DNA from: Candidatus Pacearchaeota archaeon
GTDB taxonomy: Archaea > Nanobdellota > Nanobdellia > Pacearchaeales > GW2011-AR1
Direction: 5' to 3'
Assembly: GCA_023136775.1 (NCBI GenBank)
Contig: JAGLQO010000011.1
Coordinates: 34,528-98,527 of the forward strand
Length of the DNA: 64,000 bases
The translations under genes were made by a program, and so were the position numbers. The first letter of the stretch is position 1. Each line of letters begins with the position of its first letter. This document shows, in pieces, positions 2,577-59,766 of this stretch. The notes beneath the pieces were generated by a model, which did no database searches, was not told where the DNA came from, and was given only the letters and a program-made list of their open reading frames with translations.

Positions 2577-2672
2577 GTTGGAGCGTCGGCTTGGTTGGGC
2601 GTTTTTAGCAGGTGCGTGACGAATGAAATGAAGAGCGAACTATAATATATACGAGAACGGAACGTTCTCTAA
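2577..2672 (+). repeat. Family B element, copy B1: ttggagcg head, GAGCGA-type purine-rich body, TATA-like box and terminal hairpin
   Basis: ggttggagcg at 2577. tataatatata at 2641-2651, then hairpin gagaacg-gaa-cgttctc at 2653-2669. Same architecture as six other copies. Confidence 0.7.
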
Positions 2673-2745
2673 TTGACGCGAATAAATTATAAAGTGAACT
2701 TTAAGAATTAATAAAATATTTATACTCCCTTATCTTAGGTTTCTT

Positions 2746-3099
2746 ATGGTAGATAAACTCAGTAAAGAAAAACTTGCTAGAATTCTTGGATTTACTGGTG
2801 ATGTAATTAAGTATAATGATTATCTTACTGGAGAGAGTAAAGAATATGCAATCGGCAAAGGAGAAACTATATCAGAATACAGGTGTCCAATAGATCAAAC
2901 ACCTCTTCTATATGCGGAAGTAAGTCAGGTTTGGTCTGGGCATTATTGTCCCAATTGCGAAAACACATTTGAAGATATTTCCGAAGAGGGATTAATAACT
3001 ACCTGTAAAAACATAATTAAAACAAAGAAAGATGAGCTCAAAGAAATTAGGGAACAAAAGAGTTTATTGATTAAGATTATTGAAATATTAGAGAAATAG
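2746..3099 (+). CDS. Hypothetical protein with a CP..CPNC zinc-ribbon-like motif
   Basis: 117-aa ORF with ATG start. Cysteine pairs RCP and CPNC, coiled C-terminus. Confidence 0.45.
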   Translation: MVDKLSKEKLARILGFTGDVIKYNDYLTGESKEYAIGKGETISEYRCPIDQTPLLYAEVSQVWSGHYCPNCENTFEDISEEGLITTCKNIIKTKKDELKEIREQKSLLIKIIEILEK

Positions 3100-17282: not shown

Positions 17283-17388
17283 ATTAAAGTTTTTGGAGCG
17301 AGGGGTCGTCTCGAGCGATACTAGATAAGATTGGTTGGATCGCAGAATGGCGCTATAGATAATTGAGTGAAGTTCAACAAATGAATGA
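17283..17388 (+). repeat. Family B element B2
   Basis: tttttggagcgagg head, ..ggcgctatagataat TATA-like box, small hairpin ttgag-tgaag-ttcaa, tail aatgaatgatt. Closest to B3. Confidence 0.65.
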
Positions 17389-19095
17389 TTATCTATCTTT
17401 TTCTGGCTTTGGATGTTCGTGGCCTGCTTCTTTTTTATCTTTAAGATATTTGATATGCCTATCTTTTTCTTTTAAGAATTTGTTTAAATCTAATTTGTAA
17501 TTATCTATCATTTTTGAGGCATGACTTCCACCTAGGAAATGTGGCATAATTACGTATGTTGCCCCTAAATCATATAGCTGATTTGTTTCATTTATACTAT
17601 GAGATATCACTATGACTATCGCATCTTTATTTTCTTGTTTAATTCTACTTACCAATAATAAATTTGTTTCAAATTCTGGAATTGTTGAAACTGCCATTTC
17701 CACACTTTCTAAATTCAATTCGTTTAGGAATTCTTCGTCATCAGCGTCACCGTATCTGCAGTCAATCCCCATTTCTGTTAATTTTGATATTGTATCTGGA
17801 TTATAATCTACAACAAGCACCTTCTTGTTTAATTTCTTAAAAGACTCTAGTAAATCGTGACCAATTCTGTTATATCCAAATAAAATAAGATTGTAATTTT
17901 TAAAATCTTTACTTGTTTTTAATAATTTTTTTCTTTCGAATATTTTTAAATATTTTGAAAGGTGTGGATATATTTTATCTGAATAAGTGATTAAGTAAGT
18001 TGACCCTGAAATTGTTATTAGTCCGACAATTGTAACTAATGATAATATCTCGGCAGATATGTGTCCAACGCTGTAGCCCAAAGTTATCAAGATTAAAGAG
18101 AATTCACTTATTTGCGCAACGGTAAATCCTGCTTGGAATCCGACTTTCTTTTTGTAGCCCATAGCTCCCATTAAAACCATGACTACCAAAGGGTTTCCAA
18201 TTAAAACGAACAGTGAAAAGATTATTGCTGGAATTATTAATTGCCCAATATTTCCGAATTGCATTTGAGAACCCAGAAGTATGAAAAACAAGATTATGAA
18301 AAAATCTCTTAATGGTCTTAACTTTGAACTTATCTCGTAATGGAATGGGGAAACTGATAAAGCTACTCCAGCAATTAAAGCTCCGACTTCCATAGAAAAA
18401 CCAATGTAATGAAATAATGCAGCTAGGCCAAGTCCCCATCCTATTGAAAATAAAAATAAAAATTCCTGAGATTGTGCGAAAAATTTGGAAAGTTTTGGCA
18501 ATACGAAAATGCTAGCTAATACAACTCCCACGATTACTGCCAATATCAAAATTACAGATTGAATAGAAAATCCGCCCGCACCTGTATTGCTTGCAAAAGA
18601 CGAAATTATCATTAAAAATATTATTGCAAAAATATCTTGAACTAATAAAAATCCAATAGAAATTTTTCCGTATAACTTTTCTGTGTCTTTTTTATCAGAC
18701 AGTAATTTCATAATTATGATTGTACTACTAAAAGTTAAAGCTACAGCGATGTATCCTGAGACTATCAAAGAAAATCCTAACAAGTTGCTAATAAGAAATC
18801 CAATTAAAGAAGTAAAAACAATCTGTCCAATCCCAGTTACTAAAGAAACTTTCCCTACATCTTTTATAACTTTTGGGCTAAGTGATATTCCGACCATGAA
18901 AAGTAAAAATGTTACTCCTATTTGAGAAAAGATTGATATTGTCTCGGTTGATTTTACTATGTTCAAAAAATAAGGACTTACTATTATTCCTGAAAATATA
19001 TATCCTATAATTAAAGGCTGCTTTAAAAGTCTCATTAGTCCAGAAACTAAAACCGTCACTGCAATAATCAAACTCAGCTCTATAAATACGTCCAT
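17389..19095 (-). CDS. Kef-type cation:proton antiporter (CPA2) with a C-terminal TrkA-N/RCK domain
   Basis: About 12 TM segments. C-terminal Rossmann-like NLILFGYNRIGHDL..VVDYNPD. Confidence 0.8.
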   Translation of the reverse strand: MDVFIELSLIIAVTVLVSGLMRLLKQPLIIGYIFSGIIVSPYFLNIVKSTETISIFSQIGVTFLLFMVGISLSPKVIKDVGKVSLVTGIGQIVFTSLIGFLISNLLGFSLIVSGYIAVALTFSSTIIIMKLLSDKKDTEKLYGKISIGFLLVQDIFAIIFLMIISSFASNTGAGGFSIQSVILILAVIVGVVLASIFVLPKLSKFFAQSQEFLFLFSIGWGLGLAALFHYIGFSMEVGALIAGVALSVSPFHYEISSKLRPLRDFFIILFFILLGSQMQFGNIGQLIIPAIIFSLFVLIGNPLVVMVLMGAMGYKKKVGFQAGFTVAQISEFSLILITLGYSVGHISAEILSLVTIVGLITISGSTYLITYSDKIYPHLSKYLKIFERKKLLKTSKDFKNYNLILFGYNRIGHDLLESFKKLNKKVLVVDYNPDTISKLTEMGIDCRYGDADDEEFLNELNLESVEMAVSTIPEFETNLLLVSRIKQENKDAIVIVISHSINETNQLYDLGATYVIMPHFLGGSHASKMIDNYKLDLNKFLKEKDRHIKYLKDKKEAGHEHPKPEKDR

Positions 19096-19096
19096 T

Positions 19097-19558
19097 CTAT
19101 TGCTCTATTTGTAGAAAATTAATTAGGCTACTAGGCGTTATTACTCCTACAACTTTTTTATCATTATTCAAAACTGGGATATAATTAAAACCCTCTTTAT
19201 AAATTAATTCTATTACTTTATTTATTGGAGCGTCATCCCTTACTGTAGAACTATGCTTATTGGTTAAACTGATTGCTGTCTTGTATAAAAATTCTCTGCT
19301 ATACCCTATATTTAGTTCTTTTACTAATGGTTCATTTTTTACTTGATGCAAAAAAAGTTTTATCAAATCTTCTACGCTAATTTCTCCTAAGAATTTTTTA
19401 TCTTTTGAAACTACTATGCAAACATTCGCATCCTCTCTTCTTAATTTCTTTACAATTGTATTGGCGTCATCTTTTGGATAAAGGTAAATTGGTTTGATCA
19501 TTGCGCTTCTTGCAAATTTCATAGTACCCGTTTCGCCTACTTTTTTCTTCAATCTCAT
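19097..19558 (-). CDS. CBS domain pair protein
   Basis: 153 aa. Two CBS-like units (..VCIVVSKDKKFLGEISVEDLI.., ..YIPVLNNDKKVVGVITPSSLI..). Lies 1 nt upstream of the antiporter start. Confidence 0.7.
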   Translation of the reverse strand: MRLKKKVGETGTMKFARSAMIKPIYLYPKDDANTIVKKLRREDANVCIVVSKDKKFLGEISVEDLIKLFLHQVKNEPLVKELNIGYSREFLYKTAISLTNKHSSTVRDDAPINKVIELIYKEGFNYIPVLNNDKKVVGVITPSSLINFLQIEQ

Positions 19559-19631
19559 AATTAAACTTTGATTATTTTATATTTAAGAAAGGGGAAAGAA
19601 TGGGTAAAATGTAGGGAAAAAGAAAGTAAAA

Positions 19632-20048
19632 TTATCTAAGAATTGAATTTCCTGTCGGCGTTAATTTTAAATATTTATTATTCCCTTTTGTTTCAAAAGT
19701 TATATATTTTAGTTCTAATAAATTGCCTACTCTTTTCTTGATGGTTGGTTTTGTAATTTTTAAAAGTTTTGTAATTTTTATTTGATTGATTAGAATGCCT
19801 TTTTCTTCTGAATGTTTTACTGTTTTTAATATTTCTAAAAGTTCTTCTGAAATTAATTTACTTATTTGTTTTTTGTGATAACCTATAAATATTTTATATG
19901 CTGTAAAAAATAATCCTAAGAAAAGAAACAGCTGTAAGATAGAATGAATTATTGAATTTCCAAGAACATGATCAAAGAAATCGTCGACCAATTCTGTTAA
20001 AACAAATATTACAAAAAGCAATACGAATGTTAATTTTTCTTTTTCCAT
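19632..20048 (-). CDS. Membrane-tethered winged-helix (MarR/ArsR-like) protein
   Basis: Two N-terminal TM helices, then ..INQIKITKLLKITKPTIKKRVGNLLELKYITFETKGNNKYLKLTPTG (HTH plus wing). Confidence 0.5.
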   Translation of the reverse strand: MEKEKLTFVLLFVIFVLTELVDDFFDHVLGNSIIHSILQLFLFLGLFFTAYKIFIGYHKKQISKLISEELLEILKTVKHSEEKGILINQIKITKLLKITKPTIKKRVGNLLELKYITFETKGNNKYLKLTPTGNSILR

Positions 20049-20095: not shown

Positions 20096-20200
20096 TCTTG
20101 GAGCGAAGTGAAACTGAACGGTAGTGGATAAAATTGATTGGAGCGGGATGGCGCGTTATAGATAATCGAAACTTTAGTTTCGACTAATGAATGATTAAAA
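20096..20200 (+). repeat. Family B element B3
   Basis: cttggagcgaagtgaaactgaacgg head, gcgcgttatagataat box, hairpin tcgaaac-ttta-gtttcga (20166-20183), tail ctaatgaatgatt. Confidence 0.7.
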
Positions 20201-20250
20201 CTTGATTAATGAATAAAAACATCGTCGACCCAAACACTTTTAAATGAAAA

Positions 20251-23200
20251 TTGCGTTTTACAAAAATCGCAAAAGTAAACAAATCTGATATAAAAAAGAA
20301 ATTAATTAAACTAGGAGTCAAAGAAGAACTGGTTCCCGTTTTTGACAGTTTCGTAAACAATAAATTTCAGGCTGAAGCATTGGATATTTTCAAAAAGTTA
20401 GAGATTTCTAAAGAAAGGATTAACACAAAAAACGAAAGTAATATTTTAATTCGGTGGAGAAATAGAAGTTATGATGTAAGTATTGAGATTATCAACGACG
20501 AAATGTTTCATTACTGCACTTGTCCTCATAGAAGCGAAGCTAAAGCTTGTTCTCATGCGGGAGCTACGCTGATTTACAAGATGCTAAGAAACGAAAAAAA
20601 TGAATTTAATTCTAAACCAAAAACTTTAATGAAAGCTCAAGAGACCAATAAGAAAAATCAGGGTGGAATTACTTATTTTAAAGAATTATTTCCAACAGTA
20701 AAAAAAGAAGCTCAGAAAAATGTCATTTATTTTAACTTTGAAGACTTCGATGAAAATGGGCAAAATTTAGCTTTACAGCGAGGAATTATCAAGAAAGATG
20801 GTGAACATTCCCTCCCAATGAAACTTACTGGAAAAGATTTTAGTTTTAGTAAATTAAAAGTTAATAAAAAAGTAAAAGAGGTTTTGAGCTTTATTATAAC
20901 TGGTGACAATCTCCGGGAAGGTTATAGCACTGGTGGATTTTCCAAAAGTAGATTTTATGATGTTAATACTGATATGATGATGCCGCTTTTGAAAGAAATT
21001 TATTTTGACGAGCAAGAATTAATTCTTGGGGCAACTTTTGCTGAAGATAATTTTCATGTAGCATGGGAAACCAAATTGAATGATGACGGAGATTATACCG
21101 TTAAGCCTTATTTTGTTTCTGGAAAAAGAAAAGTTGATTTATTAAAAATGCAAATTACAGAACTCGGATTAAACAGTCTTTGGGTTTTTGACAACAAGAC
21201 TAGGTGCTTTTACCAACATAAAGAATCTTTGAATTTGGAAGCTGTTAAAAATATCATTAGATTTCCAAAAGAATTAACTTTGTCAGAAAGTGAGCTTCGA
21301 GAATTTTTTGAAAGATATTACCAACAAATGCTTGATAGTTTCGAATTTAATGTTGGTGACGATTTTAAAAGAGAAGAAAAATCAGTTATTCCAAAACCTA
21401 AGTTATATATGGAGCGAGATGGGAAGAATGTTAGAATCGCTTTGAGATTTGATTACGCTGGTCGAGAGATTGATTATTTTTCTGCTAATAAAGAATTGGT
21501 AATTGTCGAGACTGATATTATTTATGATGTATCTAGAGACTTAGAAGAGGAAGACAGAATTGCCGAACTCTTAAATGAACATGATGTTGTTACGCACGGA
21601 AGATATGACGAATTTAAAATAAAGGGGGACCTTGTAGATTTTGTTGTTTATGAAATTCCCGCGATTAATGAAATGGGAATTGAAATACTTGGAGAAGAAA
21701 ATTTGTTTAATTTTAAGATTGCAAAAGGAAAAGTTGGAATGATGATGGAAGTCAGAAACGATGTCGATTGGTTTGATATTAAAGGTGAAGTTAGATTTGG
21801 AAAAGATAAAATTGGAATGGGAAAAGTTTTAGAATCAGTTTTTCAGAATAAAAGATTTGTTGATTTAGGGGACGGCAAAAAAGGAGTTATTCCTAAAAAT
21901 TGGATTAACGAGCTTAGAGCTTATCGCGGATTTTTTACTGCTGGCAAAGAAGGTGGAGTCAAATTAAACAAATATCATATGCCAGTACTGGAAAGTTTAA
22001 TTAGCCTTTCAAAGAAAAGCGAACTTGATCTGGCTGTTAAAAAAATTGTGTCGAAGTTTAAAAACTTTGAAAAAATTAAATCAACTAAACTATCTCCAAA
22101 TTTAAATGCTACACTTCGTGAATATCAAAAAGATGGCTATGATTGGTTGAACTTCCTTCGAGACTTTGAGTTTAACGGAATTTTAGCAGACGATATGGGA
22201 CTTGGTAAAACTGTGCAAACTTTAAGTATTTTGCAAAAAATTAAGGATGAAGAGAAGAATAAAAAGTTCTTAGTTATTGTTCCAACTTCCTTGGTTTTTA
22301 ATTGGAGAAATGAAATTGAGAAATTTACTCCTGGGATTAAACCTTATTTACATCATGGAGTATCGCGAGCTAAGGGCGAGAAGAAATTTGATAAAATGAT
22401 TGAGGACCACGATTTGATTATTACAACTTATGGTGTTTTGAAAAATGATTTGGCACTTTTTGTGAATAGAGAGTTTGAATACATTATATTAGATGAAGCT
22501 CATACAATTAAGAATCCCTTGAGTGTAAATGCAAGAACTGTTGGGGCACTTAATGGAAAAAGAAAGTTAGCAATTAGTGGAACACCAATTCAAAATAATT
22601 TAATTGAACTTTGGAGTTTATTTGAATTCTTGAGTCCTGGATATTTAGGAACTTATGATGGGTTTAAAGAAAACTTTGTTATCCCAATTGAAAAAGATAA
22701 AGATAAAAATGCAACGGCTAATTTGAAAAAAATGATTGATCCATTCCTACTTCGTAGAAACAAATCCAACATTGCGACAGAACTTCCCGACAAAACTGAA
22801 ATTGTATTAAAGAGTGATTTCAACGACGATGAAGCTGTTATTTATCAAACTTGGAAAGATCATTATAGCTCGGAAATTAACCGAAGTATTAAAGATAAAG
22901 GGATTAACAAATCTCGTTTGAAGATTTTAGAAGGATTAACTAAGCTTCGTCAAGTTTGTTTGCATCCGAAAATGGTTGATCCAGAATATATGGGAAGCAG
23001 TGCTAAGTTTGATTTGTTGATGATGGAAGTTGAAAAAGTTCTAAAGGAAGGTCATAAGGTTTTGATTTTCTCTTCATTTGTTAAAATGTTAAATATTGTT
23101 AAAGAGGAATTTGAACATAAGGGAATTAAGTATTCTTATCTTGACGGCTCTTCTATTAATCGTGAAAGAATTGTAGGGGAATTCCAAAATAGCAAGGAAG

Positions 23201-23696: not shown

Positions 23697-23780
23697 CGGG
23701 AGCGAGATTTATCGAGCGAAAAGCAGCCGTGCCGAGCGGATTGCTCGGTACAATTATATAATTGAGCGAAGCTCAATAAA
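23697..23780 (+). repeat. Family B element B4
   Basis: cgggagcgagatttatcgagcgaaaagc, inner hairpin ccgagc-ggatt-gctcgg, tatataat (23755-23762), hairpin ttgagc-gaa-gctcaa (23762-23776), tail taaataac. Confidence 0.7.
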
Positions 23781-23813
23781 TAACTTTTTAATATTCATAT
23801 AATTTAATTACTA

Positions 23814-24722
23814 ATGGGATATCCAAAATTTTTAAATCAAATACAAAATGAAGAACAGGACTTTTTGAAAGCTCCAATTTACCTTTATGGAACTGAAGCT
23901 ATTGGGGTATATTATAAAAAATTTGATTTAAAAAATAAGTCTGTATTAACAGTTAATGGTTCCGGGGATCAAGTTTTAGATGCTTATTATTTTGGAGCAA
24001 AAAGAGTTGTTGGTTTTGATTTGGTTAAGAATACTAAATATATGCTTGATTTGAAAGTCGCCGCACTAAAGGAACTTGATTATAAGGGATTTTTAGATTT
24101 CTTCGGAGATAAAAGCAAACTTGGAAATTTTAATCGTGAAACATATTCTTCTCTCGAAAAACATCTCGAAAATGAAACCTCTAAATTTTTTGATAATTTG
24201 TTTGAAAAATATAATAGAGACGGAAAGAGATTGCTAGAATCCGATAATTTTAGAAAAAGGAAGGAATTTTATGAAAAGCTTGAGGTTATTAATCCATTTC
24301 TAGCAAATGAAGAAAATTATCTTAAAATGAAAAAGATAATTTCTAATAAAAAAATAGAATTTATTGAATCAGATATAAAAGATATTTATAAAAAAGTTGA
24401 TGATAAATTTGACTTAATTAATTTGTCTAATGTTTTAAATTATGTCTCCAAAGATTACGAAAAAAGGGGGATAAAAAATCCTTTAGAAATAATATATAGA
24501 GAATCAATATTTAATCTTAAAGAAACTTTAAGTAAAGATGGGAAAATTATTTTTTATGCATATTATAGAGCACCAGAAGATATATCAAAAATGCCATTAA
24601 TTAATAGGGACTCTAGTTCTAAATGGATAAACTCAAAAAGGGATTTTGAAGTTTCTAAGATTGAGTTTGATGGTATATTATCTGGAAGGGATTTTATAAC
24701 TGTTTTAAAAAATAATAAATAA
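23814..24722 (+). CDS. Hypothetical protein, possibly a DUF3419/BtaA-like SAM-dependent transferase
   Basis: LTVNGSGDQVLDAYYFGAKRVVGFDL..LDLKVAALKELDYKGFLDFFG resembles the N-terminal region of DUF3419 proteins, from memory. Confidence 0.35.
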   Translation: MGYPKFLNQIQNEEQDFLKAPIYLYGTEAIGVYYKKFDLKNKSVLTVNGSGDQVLDAYYFGAKRVVGFDLVKNTKYMLDLKVAALKELDYKGFLDFFGDKSKLGNFNRETYSSLEKHLENETSKFFDNLFEKYNRDGKRLLESDNFRKRKEFYEKLEVINPFLANEENYLKMKKIISNKKIEFIESDIKDIYKKVDDKFDLINLSNVLNYVSKDYEKRGIKNPLEIIYRESIFNLKETLSKDGKIIFYAYYRAPEDISKMPLINRDSSSKWINSKRDFEVSKIEFDGILSGRDFITVLKNNK

Positions 24723-27608: not shown

Positions 27609-27756
27609 AGATTGTTGGAGCGAATGAAATGAGCGATTGAGTAGCCAAGTCGTGGCAGGGGAATGAGACGGAGTCGAATGTAGTGGTCGGTCGAACGAGT
27701 GAAGTGAAACGGAGCGAGGGAGACTTACATAATACGAGAACTGATGAGTTCTCTAA
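27609..27756 (+). repeat. Family B element B5
   Basis: ttgttggagcgaatgaaatgagcgattgag.., cataatac box, hairpin gagaact-gatg-agttctc (27736-27753), followed by taaa. Confidence 0.7.
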
Positions 27757-27870
27757 AGGGCATAAACGATACACTTGAAAAACGAACAATAAAATAATGA
27801 ATCCCCTAAATTCCCTTGTTTAAGGGATTCATTGAGTATGATAAATTAAAAAAATAATAATGTCGAAGAT

Positions 27871-30075: not shown

Positions 30076-30201
30076 TGATCCCGCCGGGATTTGAACCCGG
30101 GACCTCTAGCTTTCTTCGACGAAGCTATTTTAGAGAGCTTCAATTCCGTAGAATTGATGTCATATAAGACTAGCGCTCTGACCAGGCTGAGCTACGGGAT
30201 C
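30076..30201 (-). tRNA. tRNA-Ile, anticodon UAU, with a 51-nt intron at position 37/38
   Basis: Hand-folded. Acceptor gatcccg/cgggatc plus discriminator A, D arm gctc-agcctggtca-gagc, anticodon stem ctagt/gctag, loop ct-TAT-aa, T arm ccggg-ttcaaat-cccgg. No encoded CCA. Confidence 0.75.
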
Positions 30202-31313: not shown

Positions 31314-31994
31314 ATGGTGAAAACGTGGGTGATTAGTCTTGGCGGAAGTAGAATTGTGCCTGGGCAAGTTGATGTTAAATTTCTTAGAGAATTTAAGAGT
31401 TTAATTAATTCGCATAAATCTTATAAATTTGTAGTGGTAACTGGTGGGGGGATTACTGCTAGAAAATATATTGTGGCTCTTAGAAAAATGGGGAAGGGAC
31501 CAAGTGTCCAAGCTCGTGAGGGGATTGCTATTACTCGACATCATGCTAAATTTATGACTCGGTATTTTGGAAAGAATACTAATGATGAAATTCCAATGAC
31601 GATGAAGCAAGTGAAAAATATGCTTGTAAAAAATCAGGTTGTGTTTAGTGGTTCTCTTCGATATAAGCCAAATAATACGACTGATGGAACTGCGGCAACA
31701 TTAGCTGGATATTTGGGGTGTCCATTTATTAATTTGACAAATGTAAAGGGGCTTTATACGTCTGACCCGACTAAGAATAAAAATGCTAAATTTGTCCCAA
31801 AAATAAGTTGGATAGATTTTGATAAAATAGTTAGTAAGATTAAATTTCAAAATGGTCAGCATTTTGTTTTGGATCAGCGAGCATCTAAGACGATTAAGAA
31901 AAAGAAAATTTCTACTTATATTGTTGGAACGTTGATGAGCATTGATAATATTATAAAAAATAAAAAGTTTGTTGGAACGTTGATTGAAGGATGA
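31314..31994 (+). CDS. pyrH: UMP kinase, archaeal type
   Basis: VISLGGSRI, VVVTGGGITARKYI, amino-acid kinase fold length of about 226 aa. ATG at 31314 is preferred over TTG at 31299. Confidence 0.75.
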   Translation: MVKTWVISLGGSRIVPGQVDVKFLREFKSLINSHKSYKFVVVTGGGITARKYIVALRKMGKGPSVQAREGIAITRHHAKFMTRYFGKNTNDEIPMTMKQVKNMLVKNQVVFSGSLRYKPNNTTDGTAATLAGYLGCPFINLTNVKGLYTSDPTKNKNAKFVPKISWIDFDKIVSKIKFQNGQHFVLDQRASKTIKKKKISTYIVGTLMSIDNIIKNKKFVGTLIEG

Positions 31995-32551
31995 AGGATA
32001 TAAATTTATTCAAAGTTAATGACTCGGTATTTCTGAAAAAAATTAAATCTAAATCTGAAATCTCGGAAACAAGTGACCAAGATGGTTATCTAATTGAGTC
32101 TTCGGAAAAGGAAGCTCGGCGAATTATTGAATCTGTAAAAAGTTCTGGGAAAGTTATTGCCTTAGTTGGGGGCGACGATGCGTTTAATCGACGGGCGATT
32201 GAAACTTTGAGGATTAATTATTTAGTTTCTCCGGAGGGGGGCTATAAAAAAGATACTTTGAAGCAGCGAGATTCTGGGCTTAATCATGTCTTGGCAAAAG
32301 AAGCTGTGAAAAAAAATATTTCTATCGTTGTGGATTTGTCGGGGATTTCTAAATTGAAGGGTAAGGAAAAAGCTTTGAGGCTTGAGAAAATAATTCAGAA
32401 TATTAAGATTTGTAGAAAGGTAAATTGTAAAATTAAGATTGCTAATTTGGCTAATGACAAGAAAAATATTGTTGATGAGAAAGGTAGAATTTCATTTGGG
32501 GTAAGCTTGGGAATGGATTCTGTGCAATCGAGCGAAGCGATTAAGTTTTAA
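31991..32551 (+). CDS. Probable RNase P protein component 3 (Rpp30-like)
   Basis: 186 aa. ..GLNHVLAKEAVKKNISIVVDL..L...R......I..NIKICRKVNCKIKIAN resembles the Rpp30 TIM-barrel C-terminal half. ATGA overlap with pyrH. Confidence 0.4.
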   Translation: MKDINLFKVNDSVFLKKIKSKSEISETSDQDGYLIESSEKEARRIIESVKSSGKVIALVGGDDAFNRRAIETLRINYLVSPEGGYKKDTLKQRDSGLNHVLAKEAVKKNISIVVDLSGISKLKGKEKALRLEKIIQNIKICRKVNCKIKIANLANDKKNIVDEKGRISFGVSLGMDSVQSSEAIKF

Positions 32552-32552
32552 A

Positions 32553-32672
32553 GTTTGGAGCGAAGGTTACCTGAGCGATTGCATCGCGACACTCGTTTTT
32601 TTTATGTAGCGTAGCGAAATAAAAAAAGGAAAGAGGTCGCAACTATATAATTGAATTCGCAGAATTCAATAA
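32553..32672 (+). repeat. Family B element B6
   Basis: gtttggagcgaaggttacctgagcgatt head, tatataat (32644-32651), hairpin ttgaattc-gca-gaattcaa (32651-32669), tail taaataaaaa. Confidence 0.7.
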
Positions 32673-32726
32673 ATAAAAATCAAAATTTTCTAAAAAGTTT
32701 ATAAAAGATAATTGCCCTATATTATA

Positions 32727-40380: not shown

Positions 40381-40471
40381 AGCCTGGCATGGGGATCAAA
40401 CCCACGACCTCCGCATAATTGGAACCCTAAGGCTTACCAATGCGACGCTCTATCAACTGAGCTAACCAGGC
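40381..40471 (-). tRNA. tRNA-Thr, anticodon GGU, with an 18-nt intron at 37/38
   Basis: Hand-folded. Acceptor gcctggt/gccaggc, D arm gctc-agttgata-gagc, anticodon stem tcgca/tgcgg, loop tt-GGT-a[intron agccttagggttccaatt]a, T arm gtggg-tttgatc-cccat. Intron ccaat pairs with attgg of the anticodon region. Confidence 0.8.
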
Positions 40472-48836: not shown

Positions 48837-50768
48837 TCAACAACCCTCCAACTCATCAGCACTCATAAAACCTTCATTCATCTTCGACTTACCTGTCTCG
48901 ATTAACTCTAGGAAATGCGAAGGCTGTTCCATTCTAAAAGACTTACTACAAGTAATATGTAAATTATCTTTAGCTCTGGAAACTGCAACATAAAATAATC
49001 TTAATTCACTATCTCGTTTTGCGTCTGATAATTCCATTTTATAAAACGGCAAAGTTCTTTCGTTTACTGAGGCTATAAAAACATGCTTCCATTCTAATCC
49101 TTTTGCTCCATGGATTGTTGTTAGGACAACTTTTCCAGAAGTAACTTCACGTTTATCTGTTTCCATTATCGAATCTAAAAATCCAATTATATCTTCATTC
49201 CCATTCATGTCCTGAAATAATTTTTGAAATACTCTTAAATTTTCAAACTTATCAGAAAGTTTTGATTCTTGTTTTGCATATTTGTTAGCCAGAATATCCA
49301 AATAACCGAATTTATTTATGAATAAATCTACTGCATTTGAATTATCATCCATCAAGCATTCTTTTAGAATTTGAATTCTTTCTAACGACTCTGGTCTAAC
49401 TTTTAGTTCTGTTGCAAAATCCAAACATTCCACTAAAGACATATCATTTTTGTTAGCTAGATAAATAAATTTCTCAATTTTAATTTTGCCAATCCCCTCT
49501 ATTAGTCCTACAATTCTTTCAAAATCTATAGCAGAAAATGCGTTAACTTTTAATTTTAAAAATGATATCATGTCTTTAATTTCTTCCCTATCGAAAAAGT
49601 CAACCGACCTTGACAGATGACAAGGGATTTGTCTTTTTAGCAATTCTCGCTGAATCATTTTCCCAACAAAGTTCGTTCTAAAAAGAACAGCCATGTCTTC
49701 AAATTTTTCTCCATATTCAACTCTCGATTCAATCTTATCGGCGATTCTTTCTATTTCATCAAATTGCCCTCCACAAATATCTATCGTAACCCGATTTCCT
49801 TCTGCTCTTGTCAAGACCAATTCTTTATCAATTTTATTTTTCATTGAATCAATAATGTTATTTACTGATTTTATTATGTGAGAAGTTGAACGGTAATTTT
49901 CTTTCAAGGTAATTTCGTTTTCGTTTTCTCTAAATTTGAAAACTAAGTCATTACTTGAACCTCGCCATTCATAAATATTTTGACAATCGTCGCCTATAAG
50001 GCATAAATTATTATTCTCCAAAAGTTCTAGAATTTTCATTTGTACTACATTTAAATCTTGAGCTTCATCGACCATGATTGATTTGAAATTATTTTTATAC
50101 TCATTTCTAATTTCATCATTATCATTAAATAATTTATAAGTCAGCATCAAAACTTCGTCAAAATCCATTAGATTTTTTTCTTCCAAATATTTTTGATACA
50201 TTTTGTAAACATGATTAACTTTACTTCTCCAAGATGCATCAATCACAACTAATTCATCATCCATTAATTCACTTATTTGCCCAGAACTTTTTAACTCATC
50301 AATTCCACCTTCCCATGAAAGCGAATCTGCAAAAATACATCTACTTTTAAATTTTGAAATCCATCCAGAAAAATAACGAACCGCATTTGCATTTGGATTA
50401 ATTCCAATATTTTTTATTATACCTTTTAAAATTTGATTTGTTTCTTTTCTGTCGGTCATCAGTGTTGCTTCAATTTCTCCAAAAACTAGCTTTTTATTAT
50501 CTCTTAAAATTCTTAAAAAAATGGAATGCATTGTTCCGACAAATGGAGAAATTTTATTTGTTCTTTTTGAGATTTTGTTAATCATATCTTTCGCCGCTTT
50601 ATTTGTAAAAGTTGTCATTATAATCTCATCTGGTCGAACACCCGAATCCAAAAGTCGCAAATATCTTTCAACTATCGTTGTCGTTTTCCCTGTTCCAGCA
50701 CTTGCTATAATTAATAAATTTCCAGTTAGGATATTTGCAGCCTTTTGTTGCTCTTGATTAAGTTCCAT
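48837..50768 (-). CDS. UvrD/Rep/PcrA-family superfamily 1 DNA helicase
   Basis: IASAGTGKTT (motif I), MVDEAQDLN (II), YRSTSHI (IV), TIHGAKGLEW (V), FYVAVSRAK (VI). Confidence 0.85.
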   Translation of the reverse strand: MELNQEQQKAANILTGNLLIIASAGTGKTTTIVERYLRLLDSGVRPDEIIMTTFTNKAAKDMINKISKRTNKISPFVGTMHSIFLRILRDNKKLVFGEIEATLMTDRKETNQILKGIIKNIGINPNANAVRYFSGWISKFKSRCIFADSLSWEGGIDELKSSGQISELMDDELVVIDASWRSKVNHVYKMYQKYLEEKNLMDFDEVLMLTYKLFNDNDEIRNEYKNNFKSIMVDEAQDLNVVQMKILELLENNNLCLIGDDCQNIYEWRGSSNDLVFKFRENENEITLKENYRSTSHIIKSVNNIIDSMKNKIDKELVLTRAEGNRVTIDICGGQFDEIERIADKIESRVEYGEKFEDMAVLFRTNFVGKMIQRELLKRQIPCHLSRSVDFFDREEIKDMISFLKLKVNAFSAIDFERIVGLIEGIGKIKIEKFIYLANKNDMSLVECLDFATELKVRPESLERIQILKECLMDDNSNAVDLFINKFGYLDILANKYAKQESKLSDKFENLRVFQKLFQDMNGNEDIIGFLDSIMETDKREVTSGKVVLTTIHGAKGLEWKHVFIASVNERTLPFYKMELSDAKRDSELRLFYVAVSRAKDNLHITCSKSFRMEQPSHFLELIETGKSKMNEGFMSADELEGC

Positions 50769-59505: not shown

Positions 59506-59710
59506 GGGAATTTTTGCTTGTTGGAGTGAATGTAATGAACGATTGGTTGAATCAAGTTACTGGAGTGGAATGGATACGGAGCGAATTGAGCACGTAAAAG
59601 TGTACCCTCTAAGTAAGCGATTCTCTGAATCGCATTTTAATCGGGCAAGCCGAGTGTGGGAGCGAATAGCGGGCGAGGCGAATAAATATGAGAACGGGCG
59701 AGTTCTCTAA
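59506..59710 (+). repeat. Family B element B7
   Basis: ttgttggagtgaatgtaatgaacgatt head, many GAGCGA-like motifs, aataaatat box, hairpin gagaac-gggcga-gttctc (59690-59707), followed by taaa. Confidence 0.7.
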
Positions 59711-59766
59711 ATAAAATGCACATTTACTTCAATAAAACTTAAAAAGTTGTTGAGGATTTCCTAGTA

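Follow-up and report, generated by a model that had tools for sequence, protein, structure and literature searches.

We found that family B, a repeat with dozens of copies in a small archaeal genome, has a recognizable modular anatomy, tail hairpins whose stems covary, a defined strand polarity, ends without duplications and a narrow taxonomic range, and that it adjoins promoters but supplies none. With moderate confidence we interpret it as a lineage-specific, non-coding, modular dispersed repeat, selfish or a passenger, of the REP/BIME- or IS200/IS605-derived (PATE) kind, and not as a promoter. Mobility, a single-stranded DNA mode and an enzyme are what we infer for the family; for that enzyme we can name no more than a candidate, a Y1/HUH transposase that would act in trans.

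Anatomy of the repeat and covariation of its stems

The window, that is, the whole stretch of 64,000 nucleotides that was analysed, is C3:34528-98527 of a 1.2-Mb genome in 38 contigs (~32% G+C, estimated to be 87.5% complete). All seven copies listed for it in the preliminary description, and the one layout they were said to share, were found at their places on direct reading (Table 1). The listed tail stems matched exactly, with an AT-rich box (AT box) before each hairpin and TAAAT-like letters after it; the hairpin of copy 2 pairs only with G-T wobbles. The head, TTGGAGCGA, is exact at 17293, 20098, 27615 and 32555 and has one mismatch at 2578 and 59521; position 23698 reads GGGAGCGA. With at most one mismatch allowed, the head pattern matched 21 times (9.6 expected), a number reached in 0 of 100 shuffles. 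The body had been described as built from GAGCGA-like hexamers, which holds for two to six hexamers per body; the remainder is variable. Folding of whole copies was unremarkable in 4 of 6 window copies (z from +0.9 to -2.9).

Table 1. Coordinates of window copies of family B and of related features elsewhere in the genome. Positions without a contig name are those of the window.
Feature	Position	Strand	Head	Tail hairpin	Tail stem	Remarks
Copy 1	2577..2674	+	2578-2586	2653-2669	GAGAACG/CGTTCTC	AT box 2641-2652; GAA loop; R1 42.7 bits
Own promoter of leaderless gene 2746-3099	2713..2724	+				BRE AA 2713-2714; TATA TTTATA 2719-2724
Copy 2	17291..17388	+	17293-17301	17363-17377		wobble-paired; R1 29.3 bits
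Copy 3	20096..20200	+	20098-20106	20166-20183	TCGAAAC/GTTTCGA	upstream of SNF2 helicase gene
Copy 4	23697..23785	+	23698-23705	23761-23777	TTGAGC/GCTCAA	inner GC hairpin ~23729-23751; tail hairpin contains GCGAAGC
Copy 5	27609..27760	+	27615-27623	27736-27753	GAGAACT/AGTTCTC	family A unit ahead
Copy 6	32553..32678	+	32555-32563	32650-32670	TTGAATTC/GAATTCAA	long inner stem
Copy 7	59506..59715	+	59521-59529	59690-59707	GAGAAC/GTTCTC	family A array ahead
CTGCAAAATAT/CAGCTGCAAAATAT subfamily, example	C5:6273-6335
CTGCAAAATAT/CAGCTGCAAAATAT subfamily, example	C23:52030-52092
CTGCAAAATAT/CAGCTGCAAAATAT subfamily, example	C34:73909-73971
IS200-like element, ~560 bp	C24:10756-11318					three copies 95-99% identical
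IS200-like element, ~560 bp	C23:55356-55918
IS200-like element, ~560 bp	C20:15820-16360
Other Y1 gene	C15:24622-25086					intact
Other Y1 gene	C20:23912-24166					broken

We aligned 47 tails from the genome and used them to build R1, a covariance model that spans the AT box, the hairpin and the TAAAT of the tail. A census with R1 found 56 copies in the genome, supporting the earlier view of a dispersed, possibly mobile family. The seven window copies scored at E values from 2e-6 to 3e-3, all on the + strand, and the window held one extra weak match (49155-49218, - strand). In the alignment, an invariant ATA stands two bases ahead of the hairpin and TAAAT-like letters stand behind it. The six core stem pairs covary: 86% of the cells were paired, compared to 64% in shuffles, and both sides had changed in 76 stem cells, compared to 27 after shuffling. 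None of 500 shuffles reached the observed value, and no slid register came close. The 56 census tails have 30 different stems, and only the flanking AT box and TAAAT are conserved. From the variable stems, the preliminary description had judged a shared repressor that binds the palindrome unlikely and a structural role the better fit; our analysis supports this judgement.

GAA is the commonest tail loop, and c-GNA-g loops are present in 21 of the 56 tails. The c-GNA-g loop forms an extra-stable DNA mini-hairpin whose stability needs the C-G closing pair (PMC13037366, PMC3201870). Where tail stems contain wobble mismatches, these are G-T on the top strand only (5 vs 0).

The 5' junction is TT followed by GGAGCGA; 90% of copies have a T at -1 and 80% have one at -2. 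After GGAGCGA the head forms a small covarying hairpin that differs in stem from copy to copy, is closed by Watson-Crick pairs or tandem G-A pairs, and ends in GAGCGATT. The 3' module consists of the AT box, a hairpin of 6-9 bp and TAAAT; tails come in three flavours that have this layout in common. Copies range from 84 to 205 nt because the longer ones repeat head-like units, as does copy 7, the longest in the window, which has several. In a subfamily of ~175 nt, the tail hairpin is preceded by CTGCAAAATAT/CAGCTGCAAAATAT and the element runs ~35 nt past the hairpin. We refer to the census without this CTGCAAAATAT subfamily as the main family. Other repeat families, among them family A (CACGGAT units) and a family made of a hairpin plus a T-run, often lie just upstream of the head; copy 2, for example, is preceded by uvrB and a family A unit. 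Similarity among the copies of this genome is 75-90%, with no nearly identical pair, which gives no indication of a very recent burst.

No Rfam 15 family matched family B in the window at the gathering threshold, and a search of two copies at E values up to 10 returned only chance-level matches (E above 4).

Promoters of the neighbouring genes

The genome was thought to use archaeal BRE/TATA promoters, and a positional signal at gene starts bears this out. In an alignment of 338 gene starts with enough upstream space for a promoter of their own, we found AA at -33/-32 and TTTA(T/A)AAA at -29 to -22, and no leader signal. Because BRE/TATA lies at a fixed -33 to -22 from the ATG, the mRNAs are leaderless, with transcription beginning at the ATG or next to it. 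This signal is one archaeal mark; others, in the window, are the RNase P p30 gene (31991-32551) and two long tRNA genes that probably contain introns. A weight matrix (PWM) built from the 338 promoter sites has a genome background of 2.17 (95th percentile at a single position).

We found that the genes downstream of family B copies keep a canonical promoter between the hairpin and the ATG, contrary to the proposal that the repeat is a dispersed promoter or 5'-leader module. The promoters of these genes had a median PWM score of 5.96, compared to 5.08 for genes in general; the best scores of the tail AT boxes had a median of 2.27. At the window starts 2746, 23814, 32727 and 59767 the scores were 4.0, 5.3, 6.9 and 7.2, the first belonging to the promoter that follows copy 1 at the canonical place, the third to the Na+/H+ exchanger gene downstream of copy 6 and the last to the UvrD-like helicase gene downstream of copy 7, each with its own promoter. 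The tail AT box lies at least 57 nt upstream of the ATG, and the canonical place at -33 to -22 holds the gene's own promoter. Were the tail AT box to act as a TATA box, transcription would be predicted to begin 15-25 nt from the beginning of the hairpin, level with its 3' end or slightly beyond, leaving the hairpin out of any leader or transcript made from that box. Copy ends had been placed 31-66 nt from start codons; measured from the same ends, the distances are actually 34-74 nt.

The preliminary description had also looked to a genome-wide census for a bias of copies in orientation and distance relative to downstream genes. In the census, a start codon lies ahead of 31 of 54 tails and a stop codon ahead of the other 23; a weak bias toward starts remains in the main family, where a co-oriented start follows the tail of 28 of 42 copies (~52% expected). 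Most starts lie 36-89 nt from the tail, as promoter exclusion predicts. The distance to a start is never less than 36 nt, which is the upstream edge of the BRE (copy 4 lies 36 nt ahead of the ATG at 23814), whereas the distance to a stop goes down to between -1 and 13 nt. This is the pattern expected if insertions that break promoters are lost. Copy 2 cannot be a promoter, since 11 nt separate its tail from the stop codon of the convergent gene 17389-19095; no + strand start codon is found downstream of copy 5.

Promoters ahead of the head were equally lacking. The median PWM score there was 1.07, and 1 of 51 sites scored at least 5. We rejected an independent small-RNA gene on this ground and on the unexceptional folding of 4 of 6 copies. 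For annotation, the AT boxes should not be called promoters; the real ones are the proximal BRE/TATA elements of leaderless genes.

Strand polarity and distribution

We found that family B has one polarity per genome, and this result is robust. GC3 skew was split into a part that follows the coding strand and a part, r, that is equal for genes on both strands. In 37 of 42 scorable main-family copies the GAGCGA strand coincides with the strand that r marks as G-rich, a count that overstates the statistics since copies on one contig are not independent; the contig-level count is safer, with 14 contigs in full agreement and 1 in disagreement. In convergent and divergent spacers, where the neighbouring genes have no net direction, 18 of 21 copies follow r, and genes overall are split 528 to 488 with respect to r. 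Gene direction therefore does not account for the polarity of the copies. The head of 31 of 42 main-family copies follows the end of a co-oriented gene, which is above expectation, but this link is weaker than strand polarity. The CTGCAAAATAT subfamily is not strand-locked; 2 of its copies agree and 4 disagree with r, and on several contigs it runs opposite to the main family.

Tail modules in three other genomes of the same genus (G019, G061 and G023) also have a single polarity (9/9 on four contigs). These modules have no GAGCGA body and lie on the C-rich strand (r ~0.7), the opposite of the genome studied here. Because of this reversal, identifying the top strand with the lagging-strand template cannot hold for both. 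The polarity of copies may offer a practical handle on replication direction in uncultured genomes.

The gene-independent skew itself differs widely. It is extreme (~0.7) in G019:C10, G061:C33 and C16, and G023:C6, and varies from ~0.1 to 0.55 between contigs of the present genome, a spread that could reflect different genomic compartments or a mixed bin.

The family has a narrow range. In other species of the genus R1 gave weak matches only (3/48), and in the order it gave a weak match in 1 of 150 sampled genomes. No copy was found at the SNF2 locus of five same-genus species that have the SNF2 gene. One metagenome scan yielded six loci with SNF2 relatives, all from other species (68-77% identical), and the closest of these, L070 (77% protein identity), was the one locus of the six with a family-B-like copy. 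It lies at the same place upstream of SNF2 as copy 3 and has a GGAGCGA body, the same AT box and the same ACTAAT flank; its stem is different and fully paired. R1 missed this copy, so counts based on the model make the family look somewhat younger and less diverged than it is. In a full-text literature search on intergenic hairpin repeats of DPANN archaea we found no description of such elements.

The window and L070 share one arrangement at the apparent start of the SNF2 gene: in the window its ORF opens with TTG at 20251, and an ATG at 20244 is not in frame. In L070, an ORF of the GxxExxY (PDDEXK_3-like) type followed by family A CACGGAT units (L070:9425-9795) separates uvrB from the family B copy. 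We considered a GxxExxY (PDDEXK_3) gene as a carrier and rejected it; the sole copy in the genome (C34:58802-59137, - strand) has inverted CACGGAT arrays on both sides and no family B.

Ends, relation to known elements and possible functions

The longest common substring of the two flanks of a copy averaged 5.12 nt, compared to 5.09 nt for mismatched pairs, and none reached 8 nt, so no target-site duplication was detected. There are no terminal inverted repeats; the two ends are unrelated to each other, and the head and tail hairpins are on the same strand. The lack of both inverted repeats and duplication sets family B apart from DDE-type MITEs. Insertion after an oligo-T terminator was not adopted, the junction being constant only in TT (at least 4 T in the last 5 nt in 14 of 30 copies).

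Strand-polar insertion without duplication is the hallmark of single-strand transposition by IS200/IS605 elements (PMC5027513). Of the five Y1_Tnp genes in the genome, three are intact. Three of the five are in copies of the ~560-bp IS200-like element, which encodes a 150-aa Y1 transposase (with a stop codon in one copy) and has CCCGCAGC-type hairpins at both ends. We rejected this resident element as the partner of family B, whose ends are unlike its own. R1 gave nothing significant beside any of the Y1 genes. Beside one of them, at C15:24622-25086, a tail-like hairpin that R1 does not score lies on the 3' side and on the opposite strand. This gene has no relatives in the species of the genus that carry tail modules and thus fails a test of co-occurrence.

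Family B works like repeats of the REP/BIME, PATE and BOX kinds but differs from each in the features that define membership. REP/BIME elements of enterobacteria and pseudomonads are mobilised by RAYT (TnpA-REP, a Y1 HUH transposase). Like them, family B is a short intergenic hairpin repeat of the tens-to-hundreds-of-copies class, forms modular composites of variable length, often sits just past stop codons where it is co-transcribed, leaves no target duplication, and shares its genome with Y1 HUH genes. In REPs the sequence of the stem is conserved, a GTAG tetranucleotide is present and inverted pairs are the usual arrangement, and we know of no genome-wide single polarity described for them. 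In contrast, family B stems vary freely, and no conserved palindrome of the GTAG type was found among the 56 tails and their 30 stems; a copy has one tail hairpin plus a distinct head, with all copies in one polarity, and we found no Y1 gene with family B units on its flanks. With IS200/IS605 elements and PATEs, family B shares hairpins near both ends on the same strand, the lack of terminal inverted repeats and target duplication, an orientation tied to the chromosome strand (PMC5027513) and the presence of the Y1_Tnp genes. It differs in that the end hairpins of the resident 560-bp element are unrelated to it, its stem sequence is not conserved, and its polarity is opposite in related species.

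BOX of Streptococcus pneumoniae (boxA, a variable number of boxB, boxC) and, with it, RUP, ERIC, Correia and bcr1 resemble family B in having a head, variable internal units and a tail, and in being intergenic, lineage-specific and close to gene ends. However, they are bacterial, and most have the inverted ends or duplications typical of DDE-type MITEs; to our knowledge no element of this type is strand-locked. Integron attC sites are recognised, as the hairpins of family B would be, as folded single-stranded DNA hairpins in which structure is kept and sequence varies, with uniform orientation, but family B has no cassette array and, judged by eye, no R''/R' core motifs, and its flanking genes have their own promoters and mixed orientation.

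That the repeat is a promoter or 5'-leader module, the tail AT box being the TATA of the downstream gene and the hairpin lying in its leader, is very improbable. The box is AT-rich and TATA-like, as in archaeal BRE/TATA core promoters; 31 of 54 tails do face a start codon, mostly 36-89 nt off, and the main family faces a downstream start above expectation (28/42). Yet the box is at the wrong distance from the starts of genes that are leaderless with BRE/TATA at -33 to -22; it is a weak match to the genome's own profile (2.27, against 5.96 for the proximal promoters of the same downstream genes) and is often aimed at stops, with 23 tails facing stop codons, some just 11-13 nt away. The start predicted from it, at or past the 3' end of the hairpin, would leave the hairpin outside the leader, and upstream of the same gene the family is missing in all compared relatives except the closest. 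A cis-acting RNA element in 3' UTRs is unlikely. Its hairpins would be reached by read-through from the upstream gene and would protect the 3' end or aid termination, as REP hairpins do in E. coli mRNAs. Consistent with this, a co-oriented gene ends at the head of 31 of 42 copies, heads lie 0-20 nt past stop codons with no room for a terminator (the head of copy 1 comes directly after the stop codon of ORF 2175-2576 and that of copy 6 is 3 nt past the stop codon of the RNase P p30 gene), the hairpin covaries with its G-T wobbles on the sense strand, and one copy is at the same site in a related species. But the gene upstream is divergent at 11 of 42 copies, making read-through impossible there, and polarity follows the chromosome strand even at such copies and in convergent spacers. 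The family is also almost absent from the genus, and there is no consistent T-run after the tail. A GAA triloop closed by a C-G pair is not a typical stable RNA loop. As DNA, this motif is stable (PMC3201870).

A host function of the polar element itself, either as a strand-specific site for protein binding or single-stranded DNA folding in replication, segregation or recombination (like KOPS, Chi or attC) or as a recombination site for gene blocks, is quite improbable. It would accommodate the one polarity per genome, here and in three relatives, the attC-like combination of kept structure and varying sequence, and a 2.7-kb three-gene block between copies 2 and 3 that is absent from the L070 spacer. 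However, a family missing from nearly all relatives cannot have an essential chromosome function; copies vary greatly in length and body, what lies between them is a set of ordinary housekeeping genes in mixed orientation and not cassettes, and attC core motifs were not seen by eye. The selfish or passenger repeat that we prefer also has evidence against it. Co-oriented neighbours are above expectation on both sides (31/42 upstream, 28/42 downstream), and many heads follow a stop codon so closely (0-20 nt) that many copies are bound to be transcribed in 3' UTRs and could act as RNA. A species with 77% protein identity retains a copy at the SNF2 site, the resident IS200-like element has unrelated ends and polarity is reversed in G019, G061 and G023, and copies are 75-90% alike with none nearly identical.

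In the preferred reading, the hairpins would be read as structure on one strand of the DNA while it is single-stranded. This would account for stems that change freely and stay paired, for the DNA-stable c-GNA-g loops and for the one polarity of all copies in a genome. Copies would persist only where no promoter is broken, and so would accumulate in the gap separating a stop codon from the following BRE/TATA, or where convergent genes meet. The c-GNA-g loops and the G-T wobbles confined to the top strand favour structure read on single-stranded DNA, which we infer from these patterns. Shape that is kept, sequence that is not, and a single polarity point to a single-stranded DNA mechanism not described in these archaea.

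A bolder and distinctly unlikely extension is that family B and its sibling repeats form an undescribed archaeal (DPANN) class of single-strand-folding elements, with hairpins recognised by shape alone and with insertion or survival locked to one strand. If this is true, archaea would have their own equivalent of REP/RAYT or attC-type biology, perhaps served by a new enzyme acting in trans, and the strand-locked elements could double as a marker of replication direction where origins are not known. DPANN genomes are tiny, yet many spacers here are spent on hairpin repeats.

Copies 2 and 3, which belong to one subfamily and are in direct orientation, flank the 2.7-kb block of three minus-strand genes (17389-20048), a Na+/H+ exchanger and two small ORFs. 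The uvrB-SNF2 spacer of L070 has a single copy and lacks the three genes. The block appears to have arisen by insertion or rearrangement at a copy of the repeat.

The window also contains two tRNA genes on the - strand, at 30076-30201 (126 nt) and 40381-40471 (91 nt). Rfam finds both and ARAGORN finds neither; they probably contain introns.
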